Of a stretch of DNA of 64,000 nt, positions 3,550-59,655 are shown piece after piece. The stretch's first letter is position 1, and each line of letters opens with the position of its first letter. A model generated the notes under the pieces. The model had not been told where the DNA came from and searched no databases. It saw only the letters and a program-made list of their open reading frames with translations. This DNA comes from a virus (Duplodnaviria > Heunggongvirae > Uroviricota > Caudoviricetes): the IMG/VR virus record IMGVR_UViG_3300028833_002727; one strand, 5' to 3'. Both the position numbers and the translations under genes were made by a program.

Positions 3550-6312
3550 ATGGAAAATATTAAATTAACATTAAATAAAAATAAAAGTTTTTCAAGTGTA
3601 GATAAAATACAAAATCTACACTTGGATTTAGAATCTGAGGAAAAACTATTACCTGTAAGTGATTTACAAGGTAAGATAGACGCGTATGAACAATACTTAA
3701 AAGAAAAGGATGCGTGCAATACATATCGCTTCATTTTCACAATACGTCCTTATTGTTCAAATATTTTATTTAATCATATAACCGAAGTAGGATTACAAAA
3801 CCCATGGGTAAATTCCAAAATCCCATATCATGCATTATTTTTACACGAAGACAAAGCATACAATTTTGAATGTCATAATTTGTCAGACCCAAAATATTCT
3901 GATACAAAGAATGAGGCAGGAGTTAACGCACCAATAACAAGAGATACTGGATATTCAGATCAGTTGGATTATTATTGCGGTATAGACATTTTTAATAATC
4001 ATAATTTAAGAAGAAAAGAATTTGTTTGTATAAACCAACTAAAAGATGGTGAAACTAGGGACAAGGAATTTTTTAATACATTATTTGATTATGTAAGATC
4101 AGAGTCAGGCGCTAGAATTGATGGTTTTACATACAATATAAATAACCCTAGCGAGACAAGTTCGTTACATTTGTATACCAAAGATAGTGTATATTCATTC
4201 ACTGATGCCATTGCTAAAAATTTAGATGAAGAAAATGGTTGGGTTGGTTTTAAAAATGTTACAATTCTTGATACGTTTAAGACATCTGTGAAGGATAACC
4301 AAAAAATATATAAAATGTTGAAAAATTATCAACCATGTACATTTGTTGATATGTATCCAACAAGAAAACATTTTTCTTTCGTACCATTTATTAACAAAAA
4401 TCCAATTCGAACCGAAAAAAATTGGGAATACTTATTGACGTATCCATATAAAAATGTGTATGATAATCCATTAGTATATGATAATATGAGAAAAATTTAT
4501 GGTATTAGGTGTGACTTGGAATTACCTGAAAACATGGGAACAGATAGTGGTGAAATAAGTTTAAAACAGTTATTAGGTTTAGATGATGATAATCCCGTTA
4601 ATGTTCCACTAAACATTACATTTTCTTCTCATTTAAAACATAACTTAACTCAAAATGATAAAATCAATTTGCATATTTTCAATGGCAACGCGAAAGTATT
4701 TACAAGTAGTAATGTAAATATTGTGTCAACTGGTTATAATGGTTATGATAGCGAACATTATTTTTCTGTAGCGTTAAATGATGTTATAACTGACATGACA
4801 TTAGCACTTAATGTATACCCAGAAGGAATAATTGGTTTTAGATTTGAAAAAATTAGTGTTGGTAGACCTTGTAGATATTATCTTCGTAAATTTAGGAAAT
4901 TACCTAATTTTGATGGTATACAGGTAGATACAGCTAATGAAATAGCCAATGAAGAAACTATTAAAGAAGCACTACAAAACAACGAATTTTCATCTTCATT
5001 GAATAAATTAGGGTTTAGTAAAACAATATATGGTGATGATATTTCACAAATTATATATGATGATGTGAAAATTGAAGGCTTACGAGATAATTTAGGAAGA
5101 GAGTTATCAGTCATTTATTTAACAATCATTAAAACTAATTATGGGCATGATGATTGGTATAAAATAAGTAATGTGGATACTTATTTTCCGGTTAATAATA
5201 TTGAATATTCACATTGTTTTGGTAAAGTATCATCAGGATTCGATTTACAACCAACCGTGATAGATAAGGACGAGTATAATATTCATAGGCAGCACAACAT
5301 AACCACTACAGTAACGCCTAGGTCAAAAACGCTAATTAACAATATACAGGCTTCTAGTGCAAAATTAGAAGATGATATATCAGTGCGCAGTGATACTTTT
5401 CTTGAAAACTTTGATTTATTTGGGGACATTATTGAATTAAACGAAGCAACATTAGAAGAGACGGTTTTGGAAACAGTACAACATAGATTTAACACCGCAC
5501 AACGCGAGTTTGATGAAATCGTGGGTGATGATACAACTTCAAACCCCTTTTCTAAATTAACGATTGACACCATTGAACACGACGATTATGATAACGCTGC
5601 CGGATTTAAAGGTAAAACTGAAAACATAATGTGTGCAGGTTATTGGGCAAATATTGCACCAGAAGGATATTATTATCAAGCGCATTACCCAATAAGGATA
5701 AAACAATATGACACAATAGTTAATACTGGTTATCACACACAAGTTAAATTTACTGGTGTAACAGGTAAAACAATTACAACAGATGTAAACTATTATTTAG
5801 AGTTAAATGACGAATTATATTTGTTTAAGAAAGATGATAAAACCAATACAAAATATATCGCACATGTAGATAAAGTTGAAGGCGACGATTTTACAAAAAT
5901 TACATTATCAGTTCCAACTGATGCAACTGGTAGTCTTAGTGACTACATCATATTCAAACCTAATGTGTTAAAACCAGATGGGGCATATGATTTTGGTGAC
6001 ATTGAACCAAGTTCATATAGAGAAAAAAGTGGTAGATATGTATGGAGAGAGTTGTTACCATCATCAAAAATACCAAGAGATAGTGAACTATATGACTCTA
6101 TTTTTACTAATGGTGCAATATATCACTACAAAGACATCAATTTTTATGTAAAAAGACAAGATCCATACGGTGAATATGGTTTGCATCCATTATATAATAA
6201 AGATGAGGCTAGTGATACATGTATTAAACCATTTGATTTAGAATTCGATGGAAATGAAACAGATATTACATATGGTGACTACTTTGAACCTGGAGAGAAT
6301 AATGTTTGTTAA
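3550..6312 (+). CDS. Hypothetical virion structural protein (920 aa)
   Basis: Long ORF in the co-directional structural block. No recognisable motif. Confidence 0.4.
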   Translation: MENIKLTLNKNKSFSSVDKIQNLHLDLESEEKLLPVSDLQGKIDAYEQYLKEKDACNTYRFIFTIRPYCSNILFNHITEVGLQNPWVNSKIPYHALFLHEDKAYNFECHNLSDPKYSDTKNEAGVNAPITRDTGYSDQLDYYCGIDIFNNHNLRRKEFVCINQLKDGETRDKEFFNTLFDYVRSESGARIDGFTYNINNPSETSSLHLYTKDSVYSFTDAIAKNLDEENGWVGFKNVTILDTFKTSVKDNQKIYKMLKNYQPCTFVDMYPTRKHFSFVPFINKNPIRTEKNWEYLLTYPYKNVYDNPLVYDNMRKIYGIRCDLELPENMGTDSGEISLKQLLGLDDDNPVNVPLNITFSSHLKHNLTQNDKINLHIFNGNAKVFTSSNVNIVSTGYNGYDSEHYFSVALNDVITDMTLALNVYPEGIIGFRFEKISVGRPCRYYLRKFRKLPNFDGIQVDTANEIANEETIKEALQNNEFSSSLNKLGFSKTIYGDDISQIIYDDVKIEGLRDNLGRELSVIYLTIIKTNYGHDDWYKISNVDTYFPVNNIEYSHCFGKVSSGFDLQPTVIDKDEYNIHRQHNITTTVTPRSKTLINNIQASSAKLEDDISVRSDTFLENFDLFGDIIELNEATLEETVLETVQHRFNTAQREFDEIVGDDTTSNPFSKLTIDTIEHDDYDNAAGFKGKTENIMCAGYWANIAPEGYYYQAHYPIRIKQYDTIVNTGYHTQVKFTGVTGKTITTDVNYYLELNDELYLFKKDDKTNTKYIAHVDKVEGDDFTKITLSVPTDATGSLSDYIIFKPNVLKPDGAYDFGDIEPSSYREKSGRYVWRELLPSSKIPRDSELYDSIFTNGAIYHYKDINFYVKRQDPYGEYGLHPLYNKDEASDTCIKPFDLEFDGNETDITYGDYFEPGENNVC

Positions 6313-7571: not shown

Positions 7572-9485
7572 ATGGACAAAATACATAAAATAATAAACCT
7601 TGAACAAGCAAAAAATAGAACACCAAATCCAATACAACATTATGTTATTGATTATGAAGAACATACTTGTAATCCACAAGATTATGATACGTTTGGCGGG
7701 TATTGTTTAGACATTTTGGTACCAAAAACCGCCGAGATTTGTGTACCTTTGATTTCTTGGGCACACGATTTAGATGATATTTATCATTTTGAGGAAGTTG
7801 AAGTGACTGCATTTGATATTCTTAGTGAAAATGTTGTTCGTCCAAATTGTGAGTTTGGTAATTGTAATCCAGAGGATGTAACAATAGCATATTGGGTTCG
7901 TTATAAAAATTTAATGGCAATGTACCATTGGTTGTTAAATGTGTTTATACCGTCCATTAGTTTTTACCAAAAATGTACAAATGGATATAAATCAATTAAG
8001 GTTAATGACAGAAAAGACATTTTCAAAACTGATATTGAGATATTTAGTGAACTACCAACAAACGATGAATTTGAACCTGGAACAATTATAGGGGTAACAT
8101 CTATGTATGGCGAGTTTATTTCAAAATTCAAAAGTGTTGAAACATGTAAAGATTTTTTACTTTTCATGGAAAGATTGTTGAGTGAAGGTATATTTTCACC
8201 AATTTCAGGAACAACACCATATATTGATGTTGAATTATCAATTACAAGTAATAATACTGATCTTGGTATAATGTCGCCTGTATGTGAAGAATGGATACCG
8301 AATAAAAAATATCACCTTGGAGATGTTGTTTTATATAATGGTATAACATATATATTGGGTAAATGTGATGAAACGAAATATGATAAAATTGAATTAACTG
8401 GTGAACTATTAAACAGTATTTTGGAAATATTGAAAGATGAGTCTCAAGACATTTATAACGTTGTAACTTCATCCTCAGACATACCTGAAGAAACATTTAG
8501 GTTAAAAGTTATTAGTTACGACAATAAACCTCATGTATATAAGCAATGTTTATTGAAGCAAACAACTGCTGGAATAGTGACATGGTATTTAGTTTCTCCA
8601 TATGACGACGGATTTTATAGTAGGTATTCAAAAACAACTAAGTTTACTAGCGAAACTGGAAAAACAAATTGGACAATATATAGAAAAAACTATAATGTGT
8701 CTGACTCGACTTCATATACTGGAATTACCGAATCTAAGTTAATATCGCTAAAACGTAAAATTACTTCAGTTGATGATTTTGGTGAGATATTACCTTTTAT
8801 AATAAAAGATAATGACCCCAATAACACTCACGGTGAAATACCGTACATGTCTGGAATAACTAATGAACGTTTGTATGAGGATGGTACATTTAGGGCTGAT
8901 GATTTGCGTATAGTTTCAATTAGTCCGGTTAATACTGATGTTCCAAGTAGTTGGACTAATATTACAAGTGATTCAATTACTAGTGATAAATTTAACGATA
9001 GTGGATTTATTAAGTTCATATACACGATTGGCTGTGAATTAGGGAATACTAAACTTGTGCGCCCATACACTGGAGTAGAATATGTAGATGTTTGGAAATA
9101 CACCAAACAACAAATGACTGTTCGTATACAAGGAAGGAATTATACTTTTGATTATATTTTAATTACACCAATTGACAGTAATGAACCGATAAATAATCTT
9201 GATATTACCAATAAAACTCCTATATTATCAAAAATATCATATCACGGTGCAGAATTAAAATATCTTGATTATTTACTAGCCCCATATATTAAAGAAGAAG
9301 AATTATTGGGCGTACAAGACATTAACACTGTTGAATATGATATGCACACTGGAAAATATGTTAACACTGTTAATGGATACATCAAGCGAGGTACTGCTGG
9401 CGCATTAGAAAGACATCAGATTTTGGGTGAAGTAAAAACATTCAATGATTTAGAAAATTACAGGAATAATTTTTTCCAAATCTAA
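7572..9485 (+). CDS. Hypothetical structural protein (637 aa)
   Basis: Long ORF placed in the structural operon. Confidence 0.4.
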   Translation: MDKIHKIINLEQAKNRTPNPIQHYVIDYEEHTCNPQDYDTFGGYCLDILVPKTAEICVPLISWAHDLDDIYHFEEVEVTAFDILSENVVRPNCEFGNCNPEDVTIAYWVRYKNLMAMYHWLLNVFIPSISFYQKCTNGYKSIKVNDRKDIFKTDIEIFSELPTNDEFEPGTIIGVTSMYGEFISKFKSVETCKDFLLFMERLLSEGIFSPISGTTPYIDVELSITSNNTDLGIMSPVCEEWIPNKKYHLGDVVLYNGITYILGKCDETKYDKIELTGELLNSILEILKDESQDIYNVVTSSSDIPEETFRLKVISYDNKPHVYKQCLLKQTTAGIVTWYLVSPYDDGFYSRYSKTTKFTSETGKTNWTIYRKNYNVSDSTSYTGITESKLISLKRKITSVDDFGEILPFIIKDNDPNNTHGEIPYMSGITNERLYEDGTFRADDLRIVSISPVNTDVPSSWTNITSDSITSDKFNDSGFIKFIYTIGCELGNTKLVRPYTGVEYVDVWKYTKQQMTVRIQGRNYTFDYILITPIDSNEPINNLDITNKTPILSKISYHGAELKYLDYLLAPYIKEEELLGVQDINTVEYDMHTGKYVNTVNGYIKRGTAGALERHQILGEVKTFNDLENYRNNFFQI

Positions 9486-9532
9486 ATCAAAAAAGATAAT
9501 AAAAATAGTATTTATAGTTAAAAGATTGCACA

Positions 9533-10462
9533 ATGATTACAAACGGAACATACGGAACAAAAAAACCCGCATTTATCACATCAGATGATGTAGATATATT
9601 CTATTTTTATCGTCCTACTAGAAGCACTGATTCTATGGAATTTTCAACGGGTTTTCAAATGTTAGATTCATCTTTATTGATGTCCACTACTTATGTGGAT
9701 GATGATGATAATGTATCTAATTTGCCTGGTATGTATAATTTAAAACTACCAGTTGATAAATTTGGCTCACCAGGTATTTATACGATTTACATTAAACCAA
9801 AAGAAATTGAAGCAACCATATCAGATATTGGCGTGTTAACAGCATACCCAAATATTAGAGGTGTTGTATTGAACTCTAGCAATATAAATGCTACAAATTC
9901 ACAAATTTTTAATAATGGTGGGTTAATTGGTTATAGAATTGATTATTATGATAACGATGTAAATGGGCAATTAACACAACAGGACATGTATAGGATTATA
10001 ACATCAAATAATAGATGTGAACCAGTTTCACAGAATTTTAATGATGTTAATGGAAAAGGTATTAAGTATAGATTAAATAATTCAAGTAATTTAATTTTCT
10101 GTACCGTTACACCATCTATAGGTATGTCTTTTAACCCTAACGATTTACCAAGTTTAGGTACTACGGGACAAAAAATTAAACTTGTTAACACAAAATTCAA
10201 TCCGATTTCTTTGGAAATTGAAATGGTTGAACGTGATGTTCAAGATATTGCAACAATGTTAGAAGGCGACCAGATTAGAAACCTTGATAATGCAATTATT
10301 ACAACATTCAATAAAGATGGTGAAATTTATCACCAAGCAGAATATGGTAATATTGTTGACACCGCAACTGGTACACATACAGACTTTAAATTTGCAAAAG
10401 ATAGAACTAATTTTGATGCTAGTGAAAAGCAAAAAATGGACGAAATTAAAGAACAGATATAA
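9533..10462 (+). CDS. Hypothetical structural protein (309 aa)
   Basis: ORF whose stop overlaps the next start (ATAATTATG). Confidence 0.4.
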   Translation: MITNGTYGTKKPAFITSDDVDIFYFYRPTRSTDSMEFSTGFQMLDSSLLMSTTYVDDDDNVSNLPGMYNLKLPVDKFGSPGIYTIYIKPKEIEATISDIGVLTAYPNIRGVVLNSSNINATNSQIFNNGGLIGYRIDYYDNDVNGQLTQQDMYRIITSNNRCEPVSQNFNDVNGKGIKYRLNNSSNLIFCTVTPSIGMSFNPNDLPSLGTTGQKIKLVNTKFNPISLEIEMVERDVQDIATMLEGDQIRNLDNAIITTFNKDGEIYHQAEYGNIVDTATGTHTDFKFAKDRTNFDASEKQKMDEIKEQI

Positions 10463-22344: not shown

Positions 22345-23133
22345 TTATTTGTTAATACTATTATTTATTCTATTGTTTATTAAATTACAATATTCTTCGT
22401 TTATTTCTATACCAACGTATTTCCTGTTTAGTTTTTTAGCAGCCAATGCGGTTGTTCCAGAACCCATGAATGGGTCTAACACTAAATCACCTTCGTTACT
22501 CCAAGATTTGATATGTTCTTCTATTAGGTTTTGTGGGAATACAGCAGGATGCCCACTTTTATTTTGTGCAATAGCAAAATCCCACACATTTTCCTTAATC
22601 TTCTCCTTGTTAATATTGAACTCTTTATAAGTTCTCCCATTTTCTCCGCCCATGTTTTTGGTTGTTGAATGATATTCTTTCCCAGCGCATTTACATGGAA
22701 CCATTATCGGATTGAATGTTTTTGGCTTTCCTTTCGATAATACAAACATGTATTCGAACACATCAGTATATCGTGGTTGTTTTACAACAGGCATAGGATT
22801 GGTTTTTCTCCATATCATAACATCATTTACAATGAAGCCAATTTCCTGAAAATAAAGCGCTTGCCTAAATGATACTAATGATTTTCCTCCGTTTTCCGTT
22901 TTATCGTTCACAATCCATACGATAACACCGCCATTTTTTGTTACCCTATATAACTCATCAGCTATTTTTCTGAATTTATCATCATTCCAAGTTTCATTTG
23001 ATAATGTATTACCATAATGACGAAGATCAGAATATGGAGGAGATGTAATGGTTAAATCAATGGTATTATCTGGTATTTTTTCTTTTAATACGTTTTCAGC
23101 ATCACCAAGATATATTTCGTTTTCAATCATCAT
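22345..23133 (-). CDS. DNA methyltransferase, beta class (N6-adenine or N4-cytosine)
   Basis: Motif IV TSPPY precedes motif I DPFMGSGTT (beta permutation). The SPPY form is often N4C. Confidence 0.85.
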   Translation of the reverse strand: MMIENEIYLGDAENVLKEKIPDNTIDLTITSPPYSDLRHYGNTLSNETWNDDKFRKIADELYRVTKNGGVIVWIVNDKTENGGKSLVSFRQALYFQEIGFIVNDVMIWRKTNPMPVVKQPRYTDVFEYMFVLSKGKPKTFNPIMVPCKCAGKEYHSTTKNMGGENGRTYKEFNINKEKIKENVWDFAIAQNKSGHPAVFPQNLIEEHIKSWSNEGDLVLDPFMGSGTTALAAKKLNRKYVGIEINEEYCNLINNRINNSINK

Positions 23134-24067: not shown

Positions 24068-24095
24068 AAAAAGAGGCTTCGAAACCTCTTTTTAT
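24068..24095. terminator. Bidirectional rho-independent terminator
   Basis: Hairpin AAGAGGCTTCGAAACCTCTT flanked by an A-run and a T-run. Confidence 0.6.
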
Positions 24096-24705: not shown

Positions 24706-25209
24706 TTATAACGTCACAACACTGCCAATTATCTTACCATTTTCAAATTTTTTGACAATAAATTTGTCACCCTCTTTGGCATTATCAAGATATACAACGA
24801 TACTTGTTTGTGTTTTATCGGTTAGTTTACATAAGTATGCCCCCTCGCTATATGTTTGAACAACAACACCAGTCATACCCAACAAAGTATCCTTGGTATA
24901 GAGTTCTTGTTCTTGGTTTAATTGTTGAGGAATATACAACGGCTCACGCCAAGTAATCACCATCAACAAAAATCCGAGCGGCAAACCGATAAGAAATATA
25001 AGTACCAAAGTTGATAATAGTGTTGGTGCATCACCCCACAAGTGAAGATTATACTCACTAATTGCTACATACGTCCATGAAGCACTTGTGGTAAATGAGA
25101 GAAGCATACTTACGAGTATGTTCACGTATTTGTTAGTAATATCCACTAATCCATATAATACCAACAGTGTGGATGCAAACAATGCAACTATGTAATTTAT
25201 CGGTATCAT
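24706..25209 (-). CDS. NfeD-like membrane protein (TM helices plus a C-terminal OB-fold-like barrel)
   Basis: 3-4 N-terminal TM helices. A C-terminal GMTGVVVQTYSEGAYLCKLTD...KEGDKFIVKKFENGKIIGSVV beta-rich tail typical of short NfeD (YuaF-like). Confidence 0.4.
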   Translation of the reverse strand: MIPINYIVALFASTLLVLYGLVDITNKYVNILVSMLLSFTTSASWTYVAISEYNLHLWGDAPTLLSTLVLIFLIGLPLGFLLMVITWREPLYIPQQLNQEQELYTKDTLLGMTGVVVQTYSEGAYLCKLTDKTQTSIVVYLDNAKEGDKFIVKKFENGKIIGSVVTL

Positions 25210-25210
25210 A

Positions 25211-25519
25211 TTAGAATTCTACTTTTGGAATATACTTCTCAGTATTCTTATTTTTACCAATGGAACGTACGTTGTTAACAATAAGTCGATAATCAGTATC
25301 ACCAAACTTAAAATTAACACCAAGACACACGTTTGATGAGTTGAAAAGATATGTTTTATTTGGGTGATGACTATCATTCAGAAAATCATATTTCTTCATG
25401 AGGACATCATATATCTCATTATCAGTAGGAAAACTATCAAACTCAACAAAATCGTAACCAACTGGACGAGACATATTGGTTGTGTAGTTCATTAAATGTA
25501 AATCAAATGCGTATATCAT
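25211..25519 (-). CDS. Hypothetical protein
   Basis: ORF in the co-directional early block. Confidence 0.35.
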   Translation of the reverse strand: MIYAFDLHLMNYTTNMSRPVGYDFVEFDSFPTDNEIYDVLMKKYDFLNDSHHPNKTYLFNSSNVCLGVNFKFGDTDYRLIVNNVRSIGKNKNTEKYIPKVEF

Positions 25520-25523
25520 ATTT

Positions 25524-25844
25524 TTATGTGTATAAGTTCATTTTATCTGGTTTTTTATCTTCCACGACAGGGCGTAAACCTGTAAAATATAGGTAATACG
25601 TATTATCACCTACGGTAAAGTTTACGCAACAATAATGACGCCCATGTTTTGTATCTTTACCACCAGGTGTTGCGCGAGAAAGCCCTTTTTCCTCTATGAA
25701 ATCCTCTTGTAAAAATGATAATTCTTCTATTATTTTTTTTCCTACTTCGAACGGTTCTGGATATTTATCATTTTCAAAGAAAAATTCTCCATATGGCATA
25801 AGATGCCCATTTGTTTCATACCACAAATCGCAAACATATTTCAT
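25524..25844 (-). CDS. Hypothetical protein
   Basis: ORF. Confidence 0.35.
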   Translation of the reverse strand: MKYVCDLWYETNGHLMPYGEFFFENDKYPEPFEVGKKIIEELSFLQEDFIEEKGLSRATPGGKDTKHGRHYCCVNFTVGDNTYYLYFTGLRPVVEDKKPDKMNLYT

Positions 25845-25849
25845 ATTGT

Positions 25850-26470
25850 TTATTTTTTTACAGTATCACAACACTTTGGGAAGTATAACAGAGTAATACC
25901 GTCCTTGTGGATGTCGATACCAGGATATTCTTTGCGGAAACTATCCATATTGAAACCAGTTGATAAGAAATGGTAGCCATTTTTAGTCGGCACCTCAATT
26001 CTTATTTTTTCTGGCACGTCAAATGGAGGTAATGAGTTGATATATGCTCTGATCTCATCACGTTTGTCGGCGTACTCACCGTCTAAGTCGATAAGATATA
26101 AAGCATCAAAGCCTTTTTGTTTTCCACATTCACCGCAAGCGGAGTTAAAACGGCTTGCCAATTCATGCCAGTTTTCTTTACGAATAGACTCAGTGATAAG
26201 CGCAATTGTTTTGAGTGCAACAGATTGTGCATCAAGACAGTTCATCTTGATATACGCACGAGCACGGTTCTTTTCACATTTTTCGATAATGTGTTTCTTG
26301 TACTTATCAAAATCCTTTTTACTGTAGATATAGAAACTCTCTACAGGAATTGAGTATGAACTCAACTCTGGGTTCTCTTTTTTGCGTCTCAAAATCTGTA
26401 CGAAGTAGAAACTTCTTTTATTCTTTTGGAAACGTAGGTTTTTTCTTATTAAATCAAAATTGTCTACCAT
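25850..26470 (-). CDS. Hypothetical protein
   Basis: ORF. It contains a CGECGK motif. Confidence 0.4.
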   Translation of the reverse strand: MVDNFDLIRKNLRFQKNKRSFYFVQILRRKKENPELSSYSIPVESFYIYSKKDFDKYKKHIIEKCEKNRARAYIKMNCLDAQSVALKTIALITESIRKENWHELASRFNSACGECGKQKGFDALYLIDLDGEYADKRDEIRAYINSLPPFDVPEKIRIEVPTKNGYHFLSTGFNMDSFRKEYPGIDIHKDGITLLYFPKCCDTVKK

Positions 26471-26640
26471 AGTTTTTTTTTGTTTTTTTTATCTCCAGTC
26501 CCAATGGCAGTCCAAACATTCAAATCTGTCTACGAACATACCTGCATGGCAATGCACATGTGTTGAACCACAGTTTGGACATATCCACGGATTATCTGGA
26601 TGTAGTTTTTTATTCTCAACTTCTTCTATATCGTCCATAA

Positions 26641-26961
26641 TCAGAATTGTGAAATTTTGTTATATTCCTTGAATGTCATTTTTTGCTCATTATCAAGTTC
26701 AATGGATTCCACTTTACCTTTTGGGCTACGTGTAATACTGATAACTTTCGCGCTGTTTACTGGTACGTAGTTACCGTATTCAAACCACCACTCCATTTCG
26801 GTGAATACATAGTCACCGACTTTAAGGTTATTAAAAGCGGCGCGATTGAGTACCCATTTGATTGGCAGGAATACCAATTGGAAAATGAAATAAATTCCAA
26901 TCCAAACTCCAAAAACGATTGCTCCCATAACGAGAGAAGATGTAATTGATAGTAATGTCAT
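26641..26961 (-). CDS. Small membrane protein
   Basis: Two N-terminal TM helices. Confidence 0.35.
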   Translation of the reverse strand: MTLLSITSSLVMGAIVFGVWIGIYFIFQLVFLPIKWVLNRAAFNNLKVGDYVFTEMEWWFEYGNYVPVNSAKVISITRSPKGKVESIELDNEQKMTFKEYNKISQF

Positions 26962-27003
26962 ATTTGTGTTTGTTTTTTAATGTTGCTTTAAATATACATT
27001 ATT

Positions 27004-27663
27004 TTATAGATATATTTTATTAAGGAATATATACTTAGCAGCCTCTTTGCGTGCCTCTTCTTCACTATTCCACTTTTGATTTCCTCGACTATCAACAATG
27101 TCTACATTACCAACTTTCGCATAGAAATGAGAACCACCAGGCCATTGAATGATACGAACATCATCTATAGTGGCTAAGTGTTGTGCAGGGAAAACAAACT
27201 CATCGGAGAAACGTTGTTCACATATCTCGTAATATTCTTCGCTATAACCAAACTGCTGAACACCATTGGCAAGATAACACTCGCCATATTTCATTAGTGT
27301 CTCTATACGCGTTTTATACGCATCTAACAGCATTTGGTTGGTAGTCTCGAACATTGATAATGGACGAGGTTCACCATGATATATACTATCTATGTAACGA
27401 ATTGCTCCTTCAATATCATTATCCGCGTGCTTCAGGAAAAAATCCAAATGAACATCTTTATCCTTGCAATTAAGAAAACGGCCCAAAGCGGTGCTAAATT
27501 TTTCAGAGAAAGAATTGTACCCACCTTGAAGTATCGGACGTAAAATTCGATCAGTATGCAATGTAACATCATTCAATGTTTTTGCACGAAAATACCAGAC
27601 AGTATCTTCTTTACCGTCTCGTTTACTTTTTAACCTTACAAATTCGTACTTACATTGTTCCAT
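27004..27663 (-). CDS. Hypothetical protein
   Basis: ORF. Confidence 0.4.
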   Translation of the reverse strand: MEQCKYEFVRLKSKRDGKEDTVWYFRAKTLNDVTLHTDRILRPILQGGYNSFSEKFSTALGRFLNCKDKDVHLDFFLKHADNDIEGAIRYIDSIYHGEPRPLSMFETTNQMLLDAYKTRIETLMKYGECYLANGVQQFGYSEEYYEICEQRFSDEFVFPAQHLATIDDVRIIQWPGGSHFYAKVGNVDIVDSRGNQKWNSEEEARKEAAKYIFLNKIYL

Positions 27664-27668
27664 ATGTT

Positions 27669-27983
27669 TTATTTTTTAATTTTTCCGTGTTTGGTAGTAT
27701 ATACACCACGATAACCACCATTTTCCAGTGTATCTCTGTCAATCTCTTTTGCTGTTAATACAAACGAGCCATCTGTTGGTTCAGCCCAATCATCTTTCAT
27801 TGGTATATTGAGTGATGTATAGGCTTCATCAAATTCAGATATGTCTTTATGTGCCAACGTATCTCGAATTATCTGCTTTTCTTTTGCACGTATACTACGA
27901 CGTTTCATGCGATAGAATTTTCTGTTGTCGCCAGTGCAAATACCAAATTTTCTTACTTTTGAATAACTTTTACTCATATTCAT
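27669..27983 (-). CDS. Hypothetical basic protein
   Basis: ORF. First gene of the minus-strand block. Confidence 0.35.
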   Translation of the reverse strand: MNMSKSYSKVRKFGICTGDNRKFYRMKRRSIRAKEKQIIRDTLAHKDISEFDEAYTSLNIPMKDDWAEPTDGSFVLTAKEIDRDTLENGGYRGVYTTKHGKIKK

Positions 27984-28268
27984 TCATTTTATAAATCTGC
28001 TGCAAAGGTAATACATTTTTTTCAAATAACCAAATAAAGTTGAAATTATTTTAAAAAGTCCTATGACCCGGAGGTTACCGGACGTAGCTATCCCGGGAAG
28101 CTTTAATCTAATAATAAAAGAAATAAATAAAGAAAACTACAAAAAGAAATATAAAGGAACGTGCGTTATGTGCATATGTATGATGGATTAGAATTTTTTT
28201 CTTTTTTTAATTTTATCAAGAAAAAAATGTATATTTGTTATGAAATTTGAATTAAATCATAAAGCAAC

Positions 28269-28739
28269 ATGAAAAACGAAAAAGATTTTAGAGATTTACT
28301 AACTATCAAACCGAAAGGATCAGAGGGTTTGAAAAACAGATTAAAAGTATGGATGAAATGGGATTCAAATGATGCAGATTATATAGAACGCACGGATATA
28401 ATGGATCCTCAACAATTATTTGGTAATAAAAAGTTAATTTATTGTTTGGCTTATATTACAACACCTTACGATTTCAAAGGGCACGATTGGAATGATGACG
28501 TATTTGAACATCATATTCCAGATAATAGAGATATAGAAGATTTGGAAGAAATTTTAGCGGACAATGATTTTATGGTTTATTCCGATTGGGGTTCATGCCA
28601 TTCATGTGAAGGTATTGAAATTACATATTATGACGAAAATGAAACACCATTTGAAATAACTTTTGATGATATTCACAAAGAGTTCGAAAAAATGACATAT
28701 GGGGAAATTTGTGAGAAAATAAATTCATTGCAAGAATAA
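28269..28739 (+). CDS. Hypothetical protein
   Basis: ORF. A TATATTTG -7-like box lies at 28230-28237. Confidence 0.4.
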   Translation: MKNEKDFRDLLTIKPKGSEGLKNRLKVWMKWDSNDADYIERTDIMDPQQLFGNKKLIYCLAYITTPYDFKGHDWNDDVFEHHIPDNRDIEDLEEILADNDFMVYSDWGSCHSCEGIEITYYDENETPFEITFDDIHKEFEKMTYGEICEKINSLQE

Positions 28740-28790
28740 AAATTTGTATATTTGAGATAACAAACTGAAAAAATAAGTTAAAATTTAATA

Positions 28791-29807
28791 TTGAGAAACA
28801 TGAGTAAATTAAAGGAAAGTCAAATTGAAGAGGTAAAAGAAGCTGTTGAAGTTGTTGCTCCAAATGAACCAGTTACTCTAACTGAAGATGAGGAACGTGT
28901 GGATCAGAAGGAAATCAACGTAATTGGTAAGCAGTGGAGTTTAATTGAGGGACAGTACATTGTTCCTGTATCTGACACATTCGAACACCTTGAACCAGGT
29001 TATTACTCAATCGGACAAGATATGAAGATTGGTTTGTATTTTGTCAAAGAGAAAGTAAATTTGGATAAGTTGTATCGTATGCCGAACAAAGCAACTGACA
29101 TCATCATGGATGACATTAGCAAGTTCTGGACTTTAAGAGACAGATACAAAAAGTATCATCACGTATTCAAACGTAACTATTTGTTATATTCAGCACCTGG
29201 TACTGGTAAGACATCTCTTATCAACCTTATGTGTCAGGATTTGATTAGCAAGTATAACGGTTTGGTATTTGGTTTAACAAGCGAAGGTGATATTGCAGCC
29301 TTTGTTGACGTAGTACGCCGTGTACGTAAAATTGATGGTGACACACCAATTATCGCGGTAATTGAGGATATTGATAACTTCATCGGAAACGAACATCAAC
29401 GCTCATCCCTTGATACACAACTATTGAACATCCTCGACGGTAACTACAAAATGTCAGATGTTGTAATTATTGCAACCACTAACTATATTGAACGTGTACA
29501 GGCGCGTTATAAGAACCGTCCATCTCGTTTCAATCGTGTAGTTGAATTCCCATTACCAAATGCTGAAAGTCGTAAGATGTATATCGAGAATACTATCTTA
29601 CCTGAAGATATGGATATGTTCAACATCGACGAATGGGTTGAAAAGACTGAGGGTTATACAATCGACCACATCAAGGAACTTATTCAACAGTTCTTCGTTC
29701 TTGGTGAGAGTGAAGAAAACGCATTCGCAAGTGTTGATGCTATGGTTAACAACAACAACCGCCTCCGTAACAAGGATAGTGTAAACCAAAGCAAATTGGG
29801 CTTCTAA
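28791..29807 (+). CDS. AAA+ ATPase
   Basis: Walker A SAPGTGKTSL, Walker B IIAVIEDID, sensor-1 ATTN. Confidence 0.8.
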   Translation: MRNMSKLKESQIEEVKEAVEVVAPNEPVTLTEDEERVDQKEINVIGKQWSLIEGQYIVPVSDTFEHLEPGYYSIGQDMKIGLYFVKEKVNLDKLYRMPNKATDIIMDDISKFWTLRDRYKKYHHVFKRNYLLYSAPGTGKTSLINLMCQDLISKYNGLVFGLTSEGDIAAFVDVVRRVRKIDGDTPIIAVIEDIDNFIGNEHQRSSLDTQLLNILDGNYKMSDVVIIATTNYIERVQARYKNRPSRFNRVVEFPLPNAESRKMYIENTILPEDMDMFNIDEWVEKTEGYTIDHIKELIQQFFVLGESEENAFASVDAMVNNNNRLRNKDSVNQSKLGF

Positions 29808-29883
29808 AATGATTTGAACTTTGGGGTAGCAATACCCCTTAGTTTAAATTAGTAAATAACAAAGTAAAAATAATATCAAGATT

Positions 29884-30417
29884 ATGAGAAATGTACATTA
29901 TGAATTTAGCGGTGACAACACAATCACTGGTACTGTAGTTTCTAAAGGAGAAACATTTACAGCAGAGGCTAAATTATGTCCTGGTGACAAATACTCAGAG
30001 GAACTTGGTAAGTTAATCGTAAAATATCGTCTCGAAATCAAGCAACGTAGACGTGATTTACGTAATACTGAAGAAGTTATCGAGAGATTGAAGGAAATTT
30101 ATGCCGACGAACACAACAACAAAGATTTCAGTGAAATCTCAAAGCACTGGATGCGTTTCATTCAAGATGCTTCTGAGGAACGTAAATCACAACTCGAAAA
30201 CATTGCATTCGCTAAAACTGCATTAGAGGTTTTAAGCCAAGGTGACGGTAAGGTTGAAACAATGATTCGTAAAATTGTTAAGAAACACTATTCAGACGAA
30301 CGCACAATCGGTTTGTTAATCGCATTGGTTAACATGGTACGTGGTGAAGTTAATAGTGAAGTATTAACTGGCGGTGAAAACAATATTGATTACGTCAAAC
30401 ACGTAAAGAAAGTTTAA
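29884..30417 (+). CDS. Hypothetical protein
   Basis: ORF. Confidence 0.4.
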   Translation: MRNVHYEFSGDNTITGTVVSKGETFTAEAKLCPGDKYSEELGKLIVKYRLEIKQRRRDLRNTEEVIERLKEIYADEHNNKDFSEISKHWMRFIQDASEERKSQLENIAFAKTALEVLSQGDGKVETMIRKIVKKHYSDERTIGLLIALVNMVRGEVNSEVLTGGENNIDYVKHVKKV

Positions 30418-30437
30418 TCACTAAACAAAATTTAATT

Positions 30438-31238
30438 ATGGGAAAAGTTAAAAAAGACAGTTTAGGTGACAGAATGAAAAGATACGAGGGTGTAAGCAAA
30501 AACACTCTTGTATCTCGTATGCCAGTAATTCTTAGATTGGATGGCTGTCACTTCCACACATTTACAAAAGGTTTTCAAAAACCATTTGATGATGTTTTAA
30601 TGAAATCAATGAAAGACACTATGAAGTATCTTTGTGAGAACATTCAGGGCTGTGTATTTGGTTACACTCAATCTGATGAAATCACATTGGTATTAGTGGA
30701 TTATCAGAACATCAATTCATCACCGTGGTTTGATAACGAGGTACAAAAAATGTGCTCTGTTGCATCATCTATGGCTGGTATGTTCTTTGCACGTACGTTT
30801 GCATACAACGTACTAATGTCAGAACTCAATGAAGATGATAAACTATTCAAGGTTTATAACAATGCAATTAACCGTGGTGCTTACTTCGATTGTAGAGCAT
30901 TTAACGTTCCACAGAGCGATGTTTGTAACTGTGTTCTATGGCGCCAGCAAGACGCAACAAGAAACTCAATACAAGCATTAGCACAAGCTAACTTTTCTCA
31001 AAAACAACTACATGGCTTGAGTTGTGATAAACTTCAAGATAAACTGTTTGTTGAGAAAGGCATTAACTGGAACAATTTGTCAACTGACAAGAAACGTGGT
31101 TCTGCATGTATTAAGCAGAAGTATTCATTCACTAACCAACATGGGGAGGAAACAATCAGAATGCGTTGGATTGTTGATGATGATATGCCTATTCTCACAC
31201 AAGATAGGGATTATATTGAGAAACTAATTTATTTTTAA
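30438..31238 (+). CDS. Thg1-like protein (tRNA-His guanylyltransferase family 3'-5' nucleotidyltransferase)
   Basis: VILRLDGCHFHTF, KPFDDVLMKSM and FGYTQSDEITLVL align with the Thg1 signatures VVVRLDGRNFHRF, KPND...LM and YGQSDEYSFVF. Confidence 0.8.
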   Translation: MGKVKKDSLGDRMKRYEGVSKNTLVSRMPVILRLDGCHFHTFTKGFQKPFDDVLMKSMKDTMKYLCENIQGCVFGYTQSDEITLVLVDYQNINSSPWFDNEVQKMCSVASSMAGMFFARTFAYNVLMSELNEDDKLFKVYNNAINRGAYFDCRAFNVPQSDVCNCVLWRQQDATRNSIQALAQANFSQKQLHGLSCDKLQDKLFVEKGINWNNLSTDKKRGSACIKQKYSFTNQHGEETIRMRWIVDDDMPILTQDRDYIEKLIYF

Positions 31239-31259
31239 CAATTTAACAAAATACAATTT

Positions 31260-32765
31260 ATGGAATTAAGTTCAATTATTACTATTTGTGTGGTTGTAGT
31301 CTTATTATTGGTGCTCGTTGCACTATCATACGTTAAGACTAGTCCTAACCAAGCCTTGGTTATCTCTGGATGGCCTAAAAAGAAACCTAAGTTTTTAATC
31401 GGTACTGGTGGGCTTCGTATCCCAGGTTTGCAGAAAATTGACAAACTTTACCTTGGACAATTATCTGTAGATATTAAGACTGATACATCAGTTCCAACGT
31501 CTGACTTTATCAATGTAGATGTAGATGCAGTAGCGAAAGTTCGTATCGACCCTAATCACATTGATATTGCAGCAGCAAACTTCCTTGGTAAATCACGTGA
31601 AGACATTGCACGAGAAATTAGAGACTCATTGCAAGGTAACATGCGTGAAATCATTGGTACACAAGACTTACGTTCTTTGAACAATGATAGAGATGGCTTC
31701 TCTAACCAAATTCAAGAAAAGGCTGCGCCAGATATGGCGAAACTTGGTATTGAGATTCTTTCATGTAACATTCAATCAATTACCGATAAGGAAGGATTGA
31801 TTCACGCACTTGGTGCTGACAACACATGTAAGATTACTAAGGATGCTTCTATCAACAAAGCAAATGCGGAACGTGACGTTGCAATCGCTAAGGCTCAAGC
31901 AGAGAAAGAGGCTAATGATGCTCGTGTCGCTTCTCAAACACAAATTGCTGAAAAGAATACTGAATTAGCAGTTCGTCAGGCTGAATTGAAACGCCAGGCT
32001 GATACCCAAAAGGCTATTGCCGACGCTGCTTATGAGATTCAAAAGCAAGAACAAGCAAAGGATATTAACGTGAAGACTGTTGAGGCAGAAACTGCTCGTG
32101 AAATACGTGCGCAAGAGCAACAACGTCAAATTAACAAACTTACAGTTGAAGCACAAGTTGAGCGTGCAAAACAAGAGCAACTTTTGAGAGAGCAAGAGAT
32201 TGCCATCCAGGAGAAAACTCTTCAAGCACAAATTAACAAGAAAGCAGATGCTGAGAAGTATCAGAAAGAGGTTGATGCAGCAGCCGTATTGGAGCAACGC
32301 AAACGTGAAGCAGAGGCTAAACGTTATGAGGCTGAACAAGAGGCAGCAGCAGTAAAAGCAAAAGCAGAGGCTGATTTATTCGCACAACAACAAAAAGCGG
32401 CAGGTATTGAGGCTGTAGGTAAGGCAGAAGCGGCAGCAATTAAGGCTAAAGGTGAAGCCGAGGCAGCAGCAATGGATAAAAAGGCTGAAGCGTTCAAGAA
32501 GTATGGACCAGCCGCTCTTGCAGAAATGGCATTCAACAAACTTCCTGAAGTTGCACGTGAAGTTGCACAACCAATTTCATCAATTAAGGATGTACACGTA
32601 TACGGTACTACAGGCTGTGAGGCTTCTGGTGTCGCAGGTAACGTTCCAGTTTTGATGAAACAAACTATGGATGTAATGCAAGAGGCAACTGGTGTAGATT
32701 TGCGTCAAATCATGCAAGACAACTCAAAAGTTGTTGCAGCAGGTGCTGAGGTAAAACATAAATAA
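31260..32765 (+). CDS. SPFH/band-7 flotillin-like protein
   Basis: N-terminal TM helix, an SPFH core, then a long EA-rich coiled coil (AEAKRYEAEQEAAAVKAKAEA...). Confidence 0.75.
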   Translation: MELSSIITICVVVVLLLVLVALSYVKTSPNQALVISGWPKKKPKFLIGTGGLRIPGLQKIDKLYLGQLSVDIKTDTSVPTSDFINVDVDAVAKVRIDPNHIDIAAANFLGKSREDIAREIRDSLQGNMREIIGTQDLRSLNNDRDGFSNQIQEKAAPDMAKLGIEILSCNIQSITDKEGLIHALGADNTCKITKDASINKANAERDVAIAKAQAEKEANDARVASQTQIAEKNTELAVRQAELKRQADTQKAIADAAYEIQKQEQAKDINVKTVEAETAREIRAQEQQRQINKLTVEAQVERAKQEQLLREQEIAIQEKTLQAQINKKADAEKYQKEVDAAAVLEQRKREAEAKRYEAEQEAAAVKAKAEADLFAQQQKAAGIEAVGKAEAAAIKAKGEAEAAAMDKKAEAFKKYGPAALAEMAFNKLPEVAREVAQPISSIKDVHVYGTTGCEASGVAGNVPVLMKQTMDVMQEATGVDLRQIMQDNSKVVAAGAEVKHK

Positions 32766-59259: not shown

Positions 59260-59623
59260 ATGGGGCTGTTTGGCTTTGACTGGAAGATTGATACGATTGT
59301 AAGCATGTAGAGAATGAGAAATCTCTTTAAAAGACTTGACAACACAATAAATGGCGAAAGAACTTACGCTCTTGCTGCTTAATCGAAGCACAGTAGATTA
59401 ACTTTTTCAGATGCAAGGCATTTGAGCAAGACATCACTCCAAGCCGAGTCTGTGGGCTTAATGGATATAGTGGTGCTGGAATACATAGAATAGATGTTAC
59501 ATGCTGTGATGTAATGTTGAAGTTTTAGCAGATAAGGTGACTTTTGATGGTTTGAGTCGTATAGTCGCTCGAAAATCTAAATCAAACTAAACATGTAGAA
59601 AGCGAAAATATTACTTGCAACAC

Positions 59624-59650
59624 ACGGGTTCGACTCCCGTCAGCTCCACC
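59624..59650 (+). other. Isolated tRNA 3' fragment (T-arm plus acceptor 3' strand plus CC)
   Basis: ACGGG-TTCGACT-CCCGT-CAGCTCC-A-CC. No complementary 5' half in the window. Confidence 0.4.
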
Positions 59651-59655
59651 TACAT

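Follow-up and report, generated by a model that had tools for sequence, protein, structure and literature searches.

A 64,000-nucleotide stretch of viral DNA (IMG/VR record IMGVR_UViG_3300028833_002727, Caudoviricetes), hereafter the window, encodes a flotillin on the plus strand (31260–32765) and an NfeD-like membrane protein, here called the candidate, on the minus strand (24706–25209). An initial annotation had joined the two into a flotillin–NfeD pair. The reading favored here, to which we assign a probability of about 0.65 as a whole, is that the window belongs to a jumbo phage infecting Bacteroidales, with a host that is probably Paludibacteraceae-like, that its flotillin was captured from the host lineage, and that the candidate is a separate and divergent NfeD-fold protein; the two genes would have separate histories instead of forming an operonic, co-inherited and co-evolving pair. 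The annotation of SPFH/flotillin genes in some phages is already known. Two elements are new. Large Bacteroidales phages show evidence of an old capture of a host flotillin, which apparently happened more than once and has been followed by strong constraint. In addition, there is a small family of NfeD-fold proteins, invisible to curated libraries and uncoupled from any SPFH gene.

Several features of the window mark it as DNA of a large phage, one from the gut or rumen. It carries 33 tRNAs and a full-length transfer-messenger RNA (tmRNA), a 1606-amino acid (aa) open reading frame (ORF) with a tail-fibre domain, and an exonuclease and a Thg1 protein that belong to phage-type families according to PHROG matches. 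An IMG/VR viral contig matches the window at 94%, and relatives, from close to more distant, are found on contigs that range from 86 kb to 365 kb, several of which measure 358–365 kb. A megablast search of GenBank phages gave no nucleotide match to the region.

Linkage and divergence of the two genes

Pairs of SPFH and NfeD proteins have been defined by operon linkage together with co-evolution, the trees of the partners co-varying in the known pairs (Hinderhofer 2009, PMC2636767). SPFH2 genes stand in an operon with an NfeD2 gene of the yuaF/yqiJ type, and solo SPFH2 genes are known from 17 genomes (PMC2636767). In the window, the flotillin and the candidate lie on opposite strands, a fact that is absent from the initial annotation, with 6 kb and 12 ORFs between them. 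A divergent intergenic region (27984–28268), recognized from the ORF layout, separates the minus-strand block that holds the candidate from the plus-strand block that holds the flotillin. No shared operon was found; instead, terminator-like hairpins delimit separate units on opposite strands. One of them (24068–24093, minus strand) has a stem of 11 bp and then a T run, and it ends the minus-strand unit one gene downstream of the candidate. The other (29823–29838, plus strand), a 6-bp stem with four GC pairs, is located 3′ of an AAA ATPase gene and upstream of the genes for a 177-aa protein, Thg1 and the flotillin. Both hairpins are consensus matches only. A sigma-70 promoter scan gave fewer matches than shuffled sequence, with a model that does not cover Bacteroidales promoters.

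The arrangement is not conserved between phages either. In the 365-kb-type phage, the flotillin and the NfeD-like gene are more than 10 kb apart. The candidate is part of a module that comprises a 206-aa protein, small paralogs, the candidate itself, 171-aa and 194-aa proteins, a methyltransferase and an exonuclease, followed by fibre-like genes. Three more distant phage types (L021, L023 and L024) keep this module, and none of them has a flotillin closer to it than 10 kb. Two adjacent small ORFs just upstream of the candidate, 25211–25519 (102 aa) and 25524–25844 (106 aa), match one ORF in L021 (9658–9996) and are probably a tandem duplication.

The two genes also differ markedly in divergence. 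Between phage types, the flotillins are 83% identical and the candidates 38%. The close strain L151, whose 86-kb contig shares the layout of the window, has a flotillin with 99% identity and a synonymous divergence (dS) of 0.13; its candidate is 71% identical with a dS of 1.39, and the genes flanking the candidate are 92–94% identical with dS values of 0.18–0.27. Judged by these values, the candidate of L151 is an allelic replacement the size of one gene, by which the flotillin was not affected.

Searches with the candidate family and with an NfeD hidden Markov model (HMM) detected an NfeD gene beside the flotillin at none of 80 bacterial loci of the donor lineage and at none of 45 viral loci. 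The donor lineage keeps its flotillin as a solo gene. Because neither operon linkage nor co-evolution holds, the proposal of a flotillin–NfeD pair is left unsupported. Small ORFs beside the bacterial flotillins were considered as NfeD genes and set aside, being LOG-like or RecX-like by eye, or spurious. ORFs upstream of the viral flotillins proved to be dUTPases and unrelated proteins, and a 168-aa ORF with a supposed transmembrane (TM) segment in L107 looks spurious.

The flotillin and its origin

The flotillin had been placed correctly by the initial annotation: an ORF of 501 aa with an ATG start occupies exactly 31260–32765, is of FloT type by its Pfam and NCBIfam matches, and contains Band_7 and Flot domains that score above their gathering cut-offs. 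The described succession of a TM helix, an SPFH core and an EA-repeat coiled coil is likewise seen. Residues 3–21 (31266–31322) form an N-terminal hydrophobic membrane anchor with a Kyte–Doolittle mean of 3.14; this is the most hydrophobic 19-mer of the protein, and every other segment of that length scores 1.6 or less, which indicates a single anchor. The SPFH/Band 7 domain at residues 26–204 (31335–31871) was recovered by the HMM check that had been proposed for it (PF01145, 5.8e-21, 75.8 bits against a cut-off of 23.6), and the match spans positions 2–175 of the 176 in the profile. A coiled-coil region at residues 330–420 (32247–32519) is rich in Ala (33%), Glu (15%) and Lys (15%) and contains 17 EA/AE dipeptides, and it is overlapped by the flotillin C-terminal domain at residues 388–469 (32421–32666; PF15975, Flot, 4.7e-8, 33.6 bits against a cut-off of 27).

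The NCBIfam FloT model (NF058507) is matched end to end, from position 4 to 475 of 477, with 259 bits, a score that does not reach the equivalog cut-off of 700 bits. The phage protein is a member of the flotillin family and not a FloT equivalog. It shares with Bacillus subtilis FloT (YuaG) and Escherichia coli YqiK the order of anchor, SPFH/Band 7 domain, EA-rich coiled coil and flotillin C-terminal domain, and YqiK is 25% identical to it over 516 aligned columns. In contrast to FloT and YqiK, the phage flotillin has phage codon usage, falls short of the FloT cut-off and has no adjacent nfeD2 gene of the yuaF/yqiJ type. It is the sole SPFH gene of the window. PHROGs v4 contains no family that matches it at E ≤ 0.01, yet relatives are encoded on 45 IMG/VR viral contigs; phage flotillins seem to be absent from that library.

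The closest bacterial flotillins, of about 500 aa and 77–81% identical over the full length, are encoded in ordinary chromosomal neighborhoods of metagenome-assembled genomes of Paludibacteraceae/Bacteroidales. A scan with one genome per species also placed the nearest flotillins in ruminant Paludibacteraceae/Bacteroidales, with those of Prevotella at 56–61%. The relative with 83% identity is found on a 365-kb contig that is full of small unannotated ORFs and keeps the order Thg1–flotillin; this contig is a related jumbo phage. The chromosomal flotillins of Paludibacteraceae/Bacteroidales resemble the phage gene in being solo and of the same size, and differ from it in GC content at third codon positions (GC3), which is 0.58–0.76 in the bacteria and 0.29 in the phage flotillin, a value like that of the neighboring phage genes. 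The ratio of nonsynonymous to synonymous divergence (dN/dS) of the flotillin is 0.04 for close strains and 0.07 when phage types are compared, and in both comparisons the flotillin is among the most conserved of the genes compared. The phage-like GC3 and the dN/dS of only 0.04–0.07 mark the flotillin as an old capture from the host lineage that has acquired phage codon usage and is held under strong purifying selection.

The 45 flotillin relatives on IMG/VR contigs occupy at least three positions among the Bacteroidales flotillins in a neighbor-joining tree that carries no support values. This distribution over several positions suggests that flotillins may have been captured repeatedly by phages.

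The neighborhood of the flotillin in the phage, beside Thg1 and a tRNA-rich region, differs from that of the Bacteroidales genes. Directly upstream is a Thg1-like tRNA-His guanylyltransferase gene (30438–31238, plus strand; Pfam Thg1, 1.5e-30; phrog_4717, 1.1e-88), which ends 21 bp before the flotillin. The adjacency is kept in the 365-kb phage (L001, Thg1 at 5147–5977); in L107, the Thg1 gene is located about 5 kb downstream of the flotillin instead. The downstream neighbor of the flotillin in the window encodes a 180-aa soluble protein with no Pfam match. In a very AT-rich viral clade (L137, L139, L141, L145 and L146; around 9330–9950), a dUTPase gene lies directly upstream of the flotillin. 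Directly 3′ of the bacterial flotillin and on the same strand, several loci (L027, L031, L033 and L044) carry an ORF of 179–190 aa with a GGATGGLM motif, LOG-family-like by eye, and the ORF at that position in L035 is unrelated to it.

Other phages carry genes of this family as well. SPFH-family genes are annotated in the T4-like phages 44RR, Aeh1 and RB43 (PMC1524935), and SPFH/flotillin genes also occur in Vibrio phage KIT04 and in csAssE-Sib. All of these are phage-borne like the flotillin described here, but at 25–31% identity to it they represent separate lineages, and none is linked to an NfeD gene in the searched literature. The same literature contained no study of the function of a phage-encoded flotillin or of a phage flotillin–NfeD pair. 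The Perkons paper was set aside as a precedent, as it concerns a prophage that integrates into the host floA gene and not a phage flotillin.

The NfeD-fold protein

The candidate gene (24706–25209, minus strand, ATG start) encodes a protein of 167 aa, which its modelled fold identifies as a divergent NfeD-fold membrane protein, with profile–profile comparison in support. The initial annotation had called it a putative NfeD because of its TM helices and C-terminal beta-barrel-like tail. The architecture and the fold were borne out, whereas the PF01957 profile gave the assignment no support, so that by the rule which that annotation had set itself the assignment would fall. The window protein has no match to PF01957 at E ≤ 1; two of 25 family members touch the profile, the better one with an E value of 0.16, which is noise level, and E. 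coli YbbJ as a positive control matches it at 3.5e-12. Searches of NCBIfam, PHROGs and PADLOC gave no meaningful match, the PDB, searched by sequence with the 167-aa protein alone as well as with the profile of its family, yielded nothing beyond noise from the TM helices, and tblastn against GenBank phages found no match. A weak Pfam signal for DUF4131, which covers TM segments plus an OB (oligonucleotide/oligosaccharide-binding) domain, is common to YbbJ and seven of the 25 family members.

YbbJ, a genuine NfeD, itself finds just one other solved NfeD domain by sequence, at an E value of 0.05, and the failure with PF01957 would therefore be a weak test for so divergent a family. The NfeD2 proteins associated with flotillins likewise share no more than about 21% identity with classical NfeD, and it was through their structure that they were recognized (Hinderhofer 2009, PMC2636767). 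In an exhaustive profile search of 1.84 billion representatives, only 29 relatives of the candidate were found, nearly all of about 160 aa. The family is small and confined to related large phages and phage-like contigs.

An AlphaFold2 model of the 167-aa protein has a mean predicted local distance difference test score (pLDDT) of 80.7 and consists of three TM helices, a disordered linker and a five-stranded beta domain. The helices cover residues 4–19, 27–53 and 64–85 (24955–25200, minus strand) with pLDDT values of 80–91, and the beta domain, a C-terminal OB barrel of the NfeD type, covers residues 113–164 (24718–24873, minus strand). When the full-length model was searched with Foldseek, the best match was YbbJ. 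A domain-only model, with a pLDDT of 86.4, was compared with 48,164 chains, and the top five were the five solved isolated NfeD domains: 3wwv (9.1), 2exd (7.8), 2k14 (YuaF, 7.4), 3cp0 (7.2) and 2k5h (7.0), followed by uS17 and other OB folds. The model thus has both the five-stranded NfeD-type OB barrel and the N-terminal TM helices ahead of it that characterize short NfeD proteins, in which such helices precede a five-stranded barrel of about 60 residues at the C-terminus (E. coli YbbJ, 8z5g; B. subtilis YuaF, 2k14; Pyrococcus horikoshii PH0471, 2exd; 1510-C, 3wwv). The candidate differs from these proteins in that PF01957 does not recognize it, the Trp of the seed domains is missing and no SPFH gene shares an operon with it.

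Profile–profile comparison of the C-terminal domain with an NfeD profile by hhalign gave probabilities of 79.6% and then 84.6% (P values of 1.5e-5 and 6.9e-6) with 49–50 columns in register, below the usual bar of 95%. The NfeD profile, built from the domains of solved structures and a profile search, is thin, with 16 sequences of which many are YbbJ-like, because the search with the seed profile yielded only 36 mostly fragmentary proteins. All hhalign controls, namely reversed sequences and 12 unrelated small phage proteins, gave P ≥ 0.05, and the candidate ranks first of 374 reading frames of the window against an independent NfeD HMM. Alignments of the family with the single sequences of YbbJ and YqiJ were insignificant (E values of 0.33 and 0.08), single-sequence templates being too weak. 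Taken together, the 167-aa protein is most likely a very divergent NfeD-fold protein and a remote NfeD homologue. Averaged over the family, loop 1 has 2.33 Lys plus Arg residues, loop 2 has 0.33 and the segment after the third TM helix 1.80, which by the positive-inside rule implies a predicted topology with the N-terminus outside and the OB domain in the cytoplasm.

A further protein of this general shape was seen in csAssE-Sib (OR575929.1; L016, 3399–3893). It is a 164-aa TM protein with an acidic DxDxD loop, a beta-rich C-terminus and no Pfam match, is encoded directly upstream of the flotillin, in the canonical nfeD position, and may be an NfeD2-like partner. Its comparison with the candidate family by hhalign gave a P value of 0.003 in one set-up and 0.29 in another.

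Possible roles and the wider window

The two proteins could nevertheless act together. YuaF–FloT and YbbJ–QmcA are known NfeD–SPFH partners, and to our knowledge every characterized NfeD works with an SPFH partner. Since the flotillin is the sole SPFH gene of the window and the two genes co-occur, in the window type and apparently also in the 365-kb type, a partnership in trans is possible, in which the OB domain would bind the phage flotillin cage and organize phage-specific membrane microdomains from unlinked genes. The predicted topology would place the OB domain on the same side of the membrane as the SPFH domains, both genes lie close to the same divergent intergenic region, so that they could share their timing, and NfeD partners encoded outside the operon are allowed for by Hinderhofer 2009 (PMC2636767). 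This explanation is nonetheless doubtful. The genes are on opposite strands, without an operon or conserved linkage; between close strains, an allele swap took the candidate to 71% (dS 1.39) and left the flotillin at 99%, and the two stand at 38% and 83% between phage types, unlike the co-varying trees of known partners (PMC2636767). Moreover, neither the donor bacterial lineage nor the 45 other phage loci with a flotillin have an NfeD gene beside it.

The partner might also be sought in the host, with the candidate targeting host SPFH assemblies (flotillin, stomatin-like proteins or HflK/C–FtsH) and thereby modulating membrane quality control or proteolysis. The conserved early-type module in which the candidate lies, with a methyltransferase, an exonuclease and an AAA ATPase, is independent of the flotillin, and fast turnover with allelic replacement is what would be expected of host-interaction genes; known NfeD/SPFH systems also connect to the FtsH protease (PMC2636767). 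As the phage and host flotillins are 80% identical, however, a protein that binds one would probably bind the other, which blurs this explanation with the partnership in trans, and we regard it as unlikely. Least probable, in our view, is a membrane-anchored OB-fold protein that has nothing to do with NfeD/SPFH function, such as a superinfection-exclusion, holin-like or injection-blocking protein. The negative result with all curated HMMs, the missing invariant Trp and the absence of an adjoining SPFH gene would agree with it, and class I holins typically have three TM helices, as the candidate does. Against it stand the hhalign probability of 85% with clean negative controls, the full-length Foldseek match to YbbJ, the DUF4131 signal shared with YbbJ and the lack of an adjacent endolysin gene. 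A role as holin was set aside because of the folded OB domain of 55 residues and because no lysis gene adjoins the candidate.

The reading of a captured flotillin and a separate NfeD-fold protein has its own difficulties. The two genes occur together in each of the phage types that could be checked, namely that of the window and, apparently, the 365-kb type. The candidate is recognized as an NfeD by no curated HMM, its best hhalign probability of about 85% was obtained with a thin NfeD profile, and the Trp of the GE-x-W-x-A-x-S motif, which all five solved NfeD seed domains share, is missing from the candidate family, where the aligned position is not conserved. The flotillin tree is without bootstrap support, and some of the IMG/VR contigs with high GC3 may be bacterial. 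Finally, the window gives a limited view, as its 64 kb are part of a genome of roughly 360 kb.

Under that favored reading of two separate genes, the flotillin would be inserted during infection, by means of its N-terminal anchor, in the host inner membrane on the cytoplasmic side, would oligomerize through its EA-rich coiled coil into flotillin cages, and may supplement or co-assemble with the 80%-identical host flotillin. Its action would maintain membrane organization and membrane-protein complexes through a long infection. The OB domain of the NfeD-fold protein may dock onto an SPFH-family assembly, as known NfeD proteins do, either the phage flotillin or a host SPFH protein. Remodeling of the host membrane or superinfection exclusion by the two proteins, as the initial annotation had offered, is speculation. 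A tentative and rather improbable extension would make the flotillin cages a scaffold and the fast-evolving NfeD-fold protein an adaptor that docks in trans and recruits or excludes clients, creating a membrane compartment under viral control, which could protect, for example, against membrane-acting abortive-infection effectors or superinfection. The frequent swapping of adaptor alleles would then reflect an arms race, and the repeated capture of flotillins by several lineages of large gut phages would point to host-membrane management as something that big phages need in general.

Little is understood so far of bacterial flotillins and their NfeD partners, and the searched literature does not address their role for a virus. 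The strong constraint on the phage flotillin argues for a real benefit during infection and not for accidental cargo. Should the candidate bind cages of the flotillin type, it would offer a natural and minimal means of studying the contact between NfeD proteins and SPFH assemblies, and a first handle on host-membrane management by jumbo phages. Should it fail to do so, it would serve as a warning that the right folds for two genes in one genome do not amount to a system.

Beyond the two genes, the window shows unusual translation-related cargo for a phage. The tRNA array (33 or more) is dense across 37119–59730, and the tmRNA at 59262–59651 (Rfam RF00023, 114 bits) encodes the tag peptide GERTYALAA. 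The sign of the GC skew flips at about 20 kb and about 28 kb of the window. The AAA ATPase gene (28791–29807) gave weak PADLOC matches with IetA and TRIP13. Its counterpart in L023 and L024 lies one to four genes upstream of the NfeD-like gene and on the same strand; the two genes of the window have opposite strands. A 219-aa ORF (27004–27663) is hypervariable, with 41–49% identity among strains in which other genes are at 86–99%, so it would be another swapped or fast-evolving allele. An N6/N4 DNA methyltransferase gene (22345–23133) is 82% identical to its counterpart in the distant 365-kb-type phage; in the closest strains, the identity is 31% (L010) or no counterpart was detected (L011). 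This pattern of identities points to probable mosaic gene exchange.

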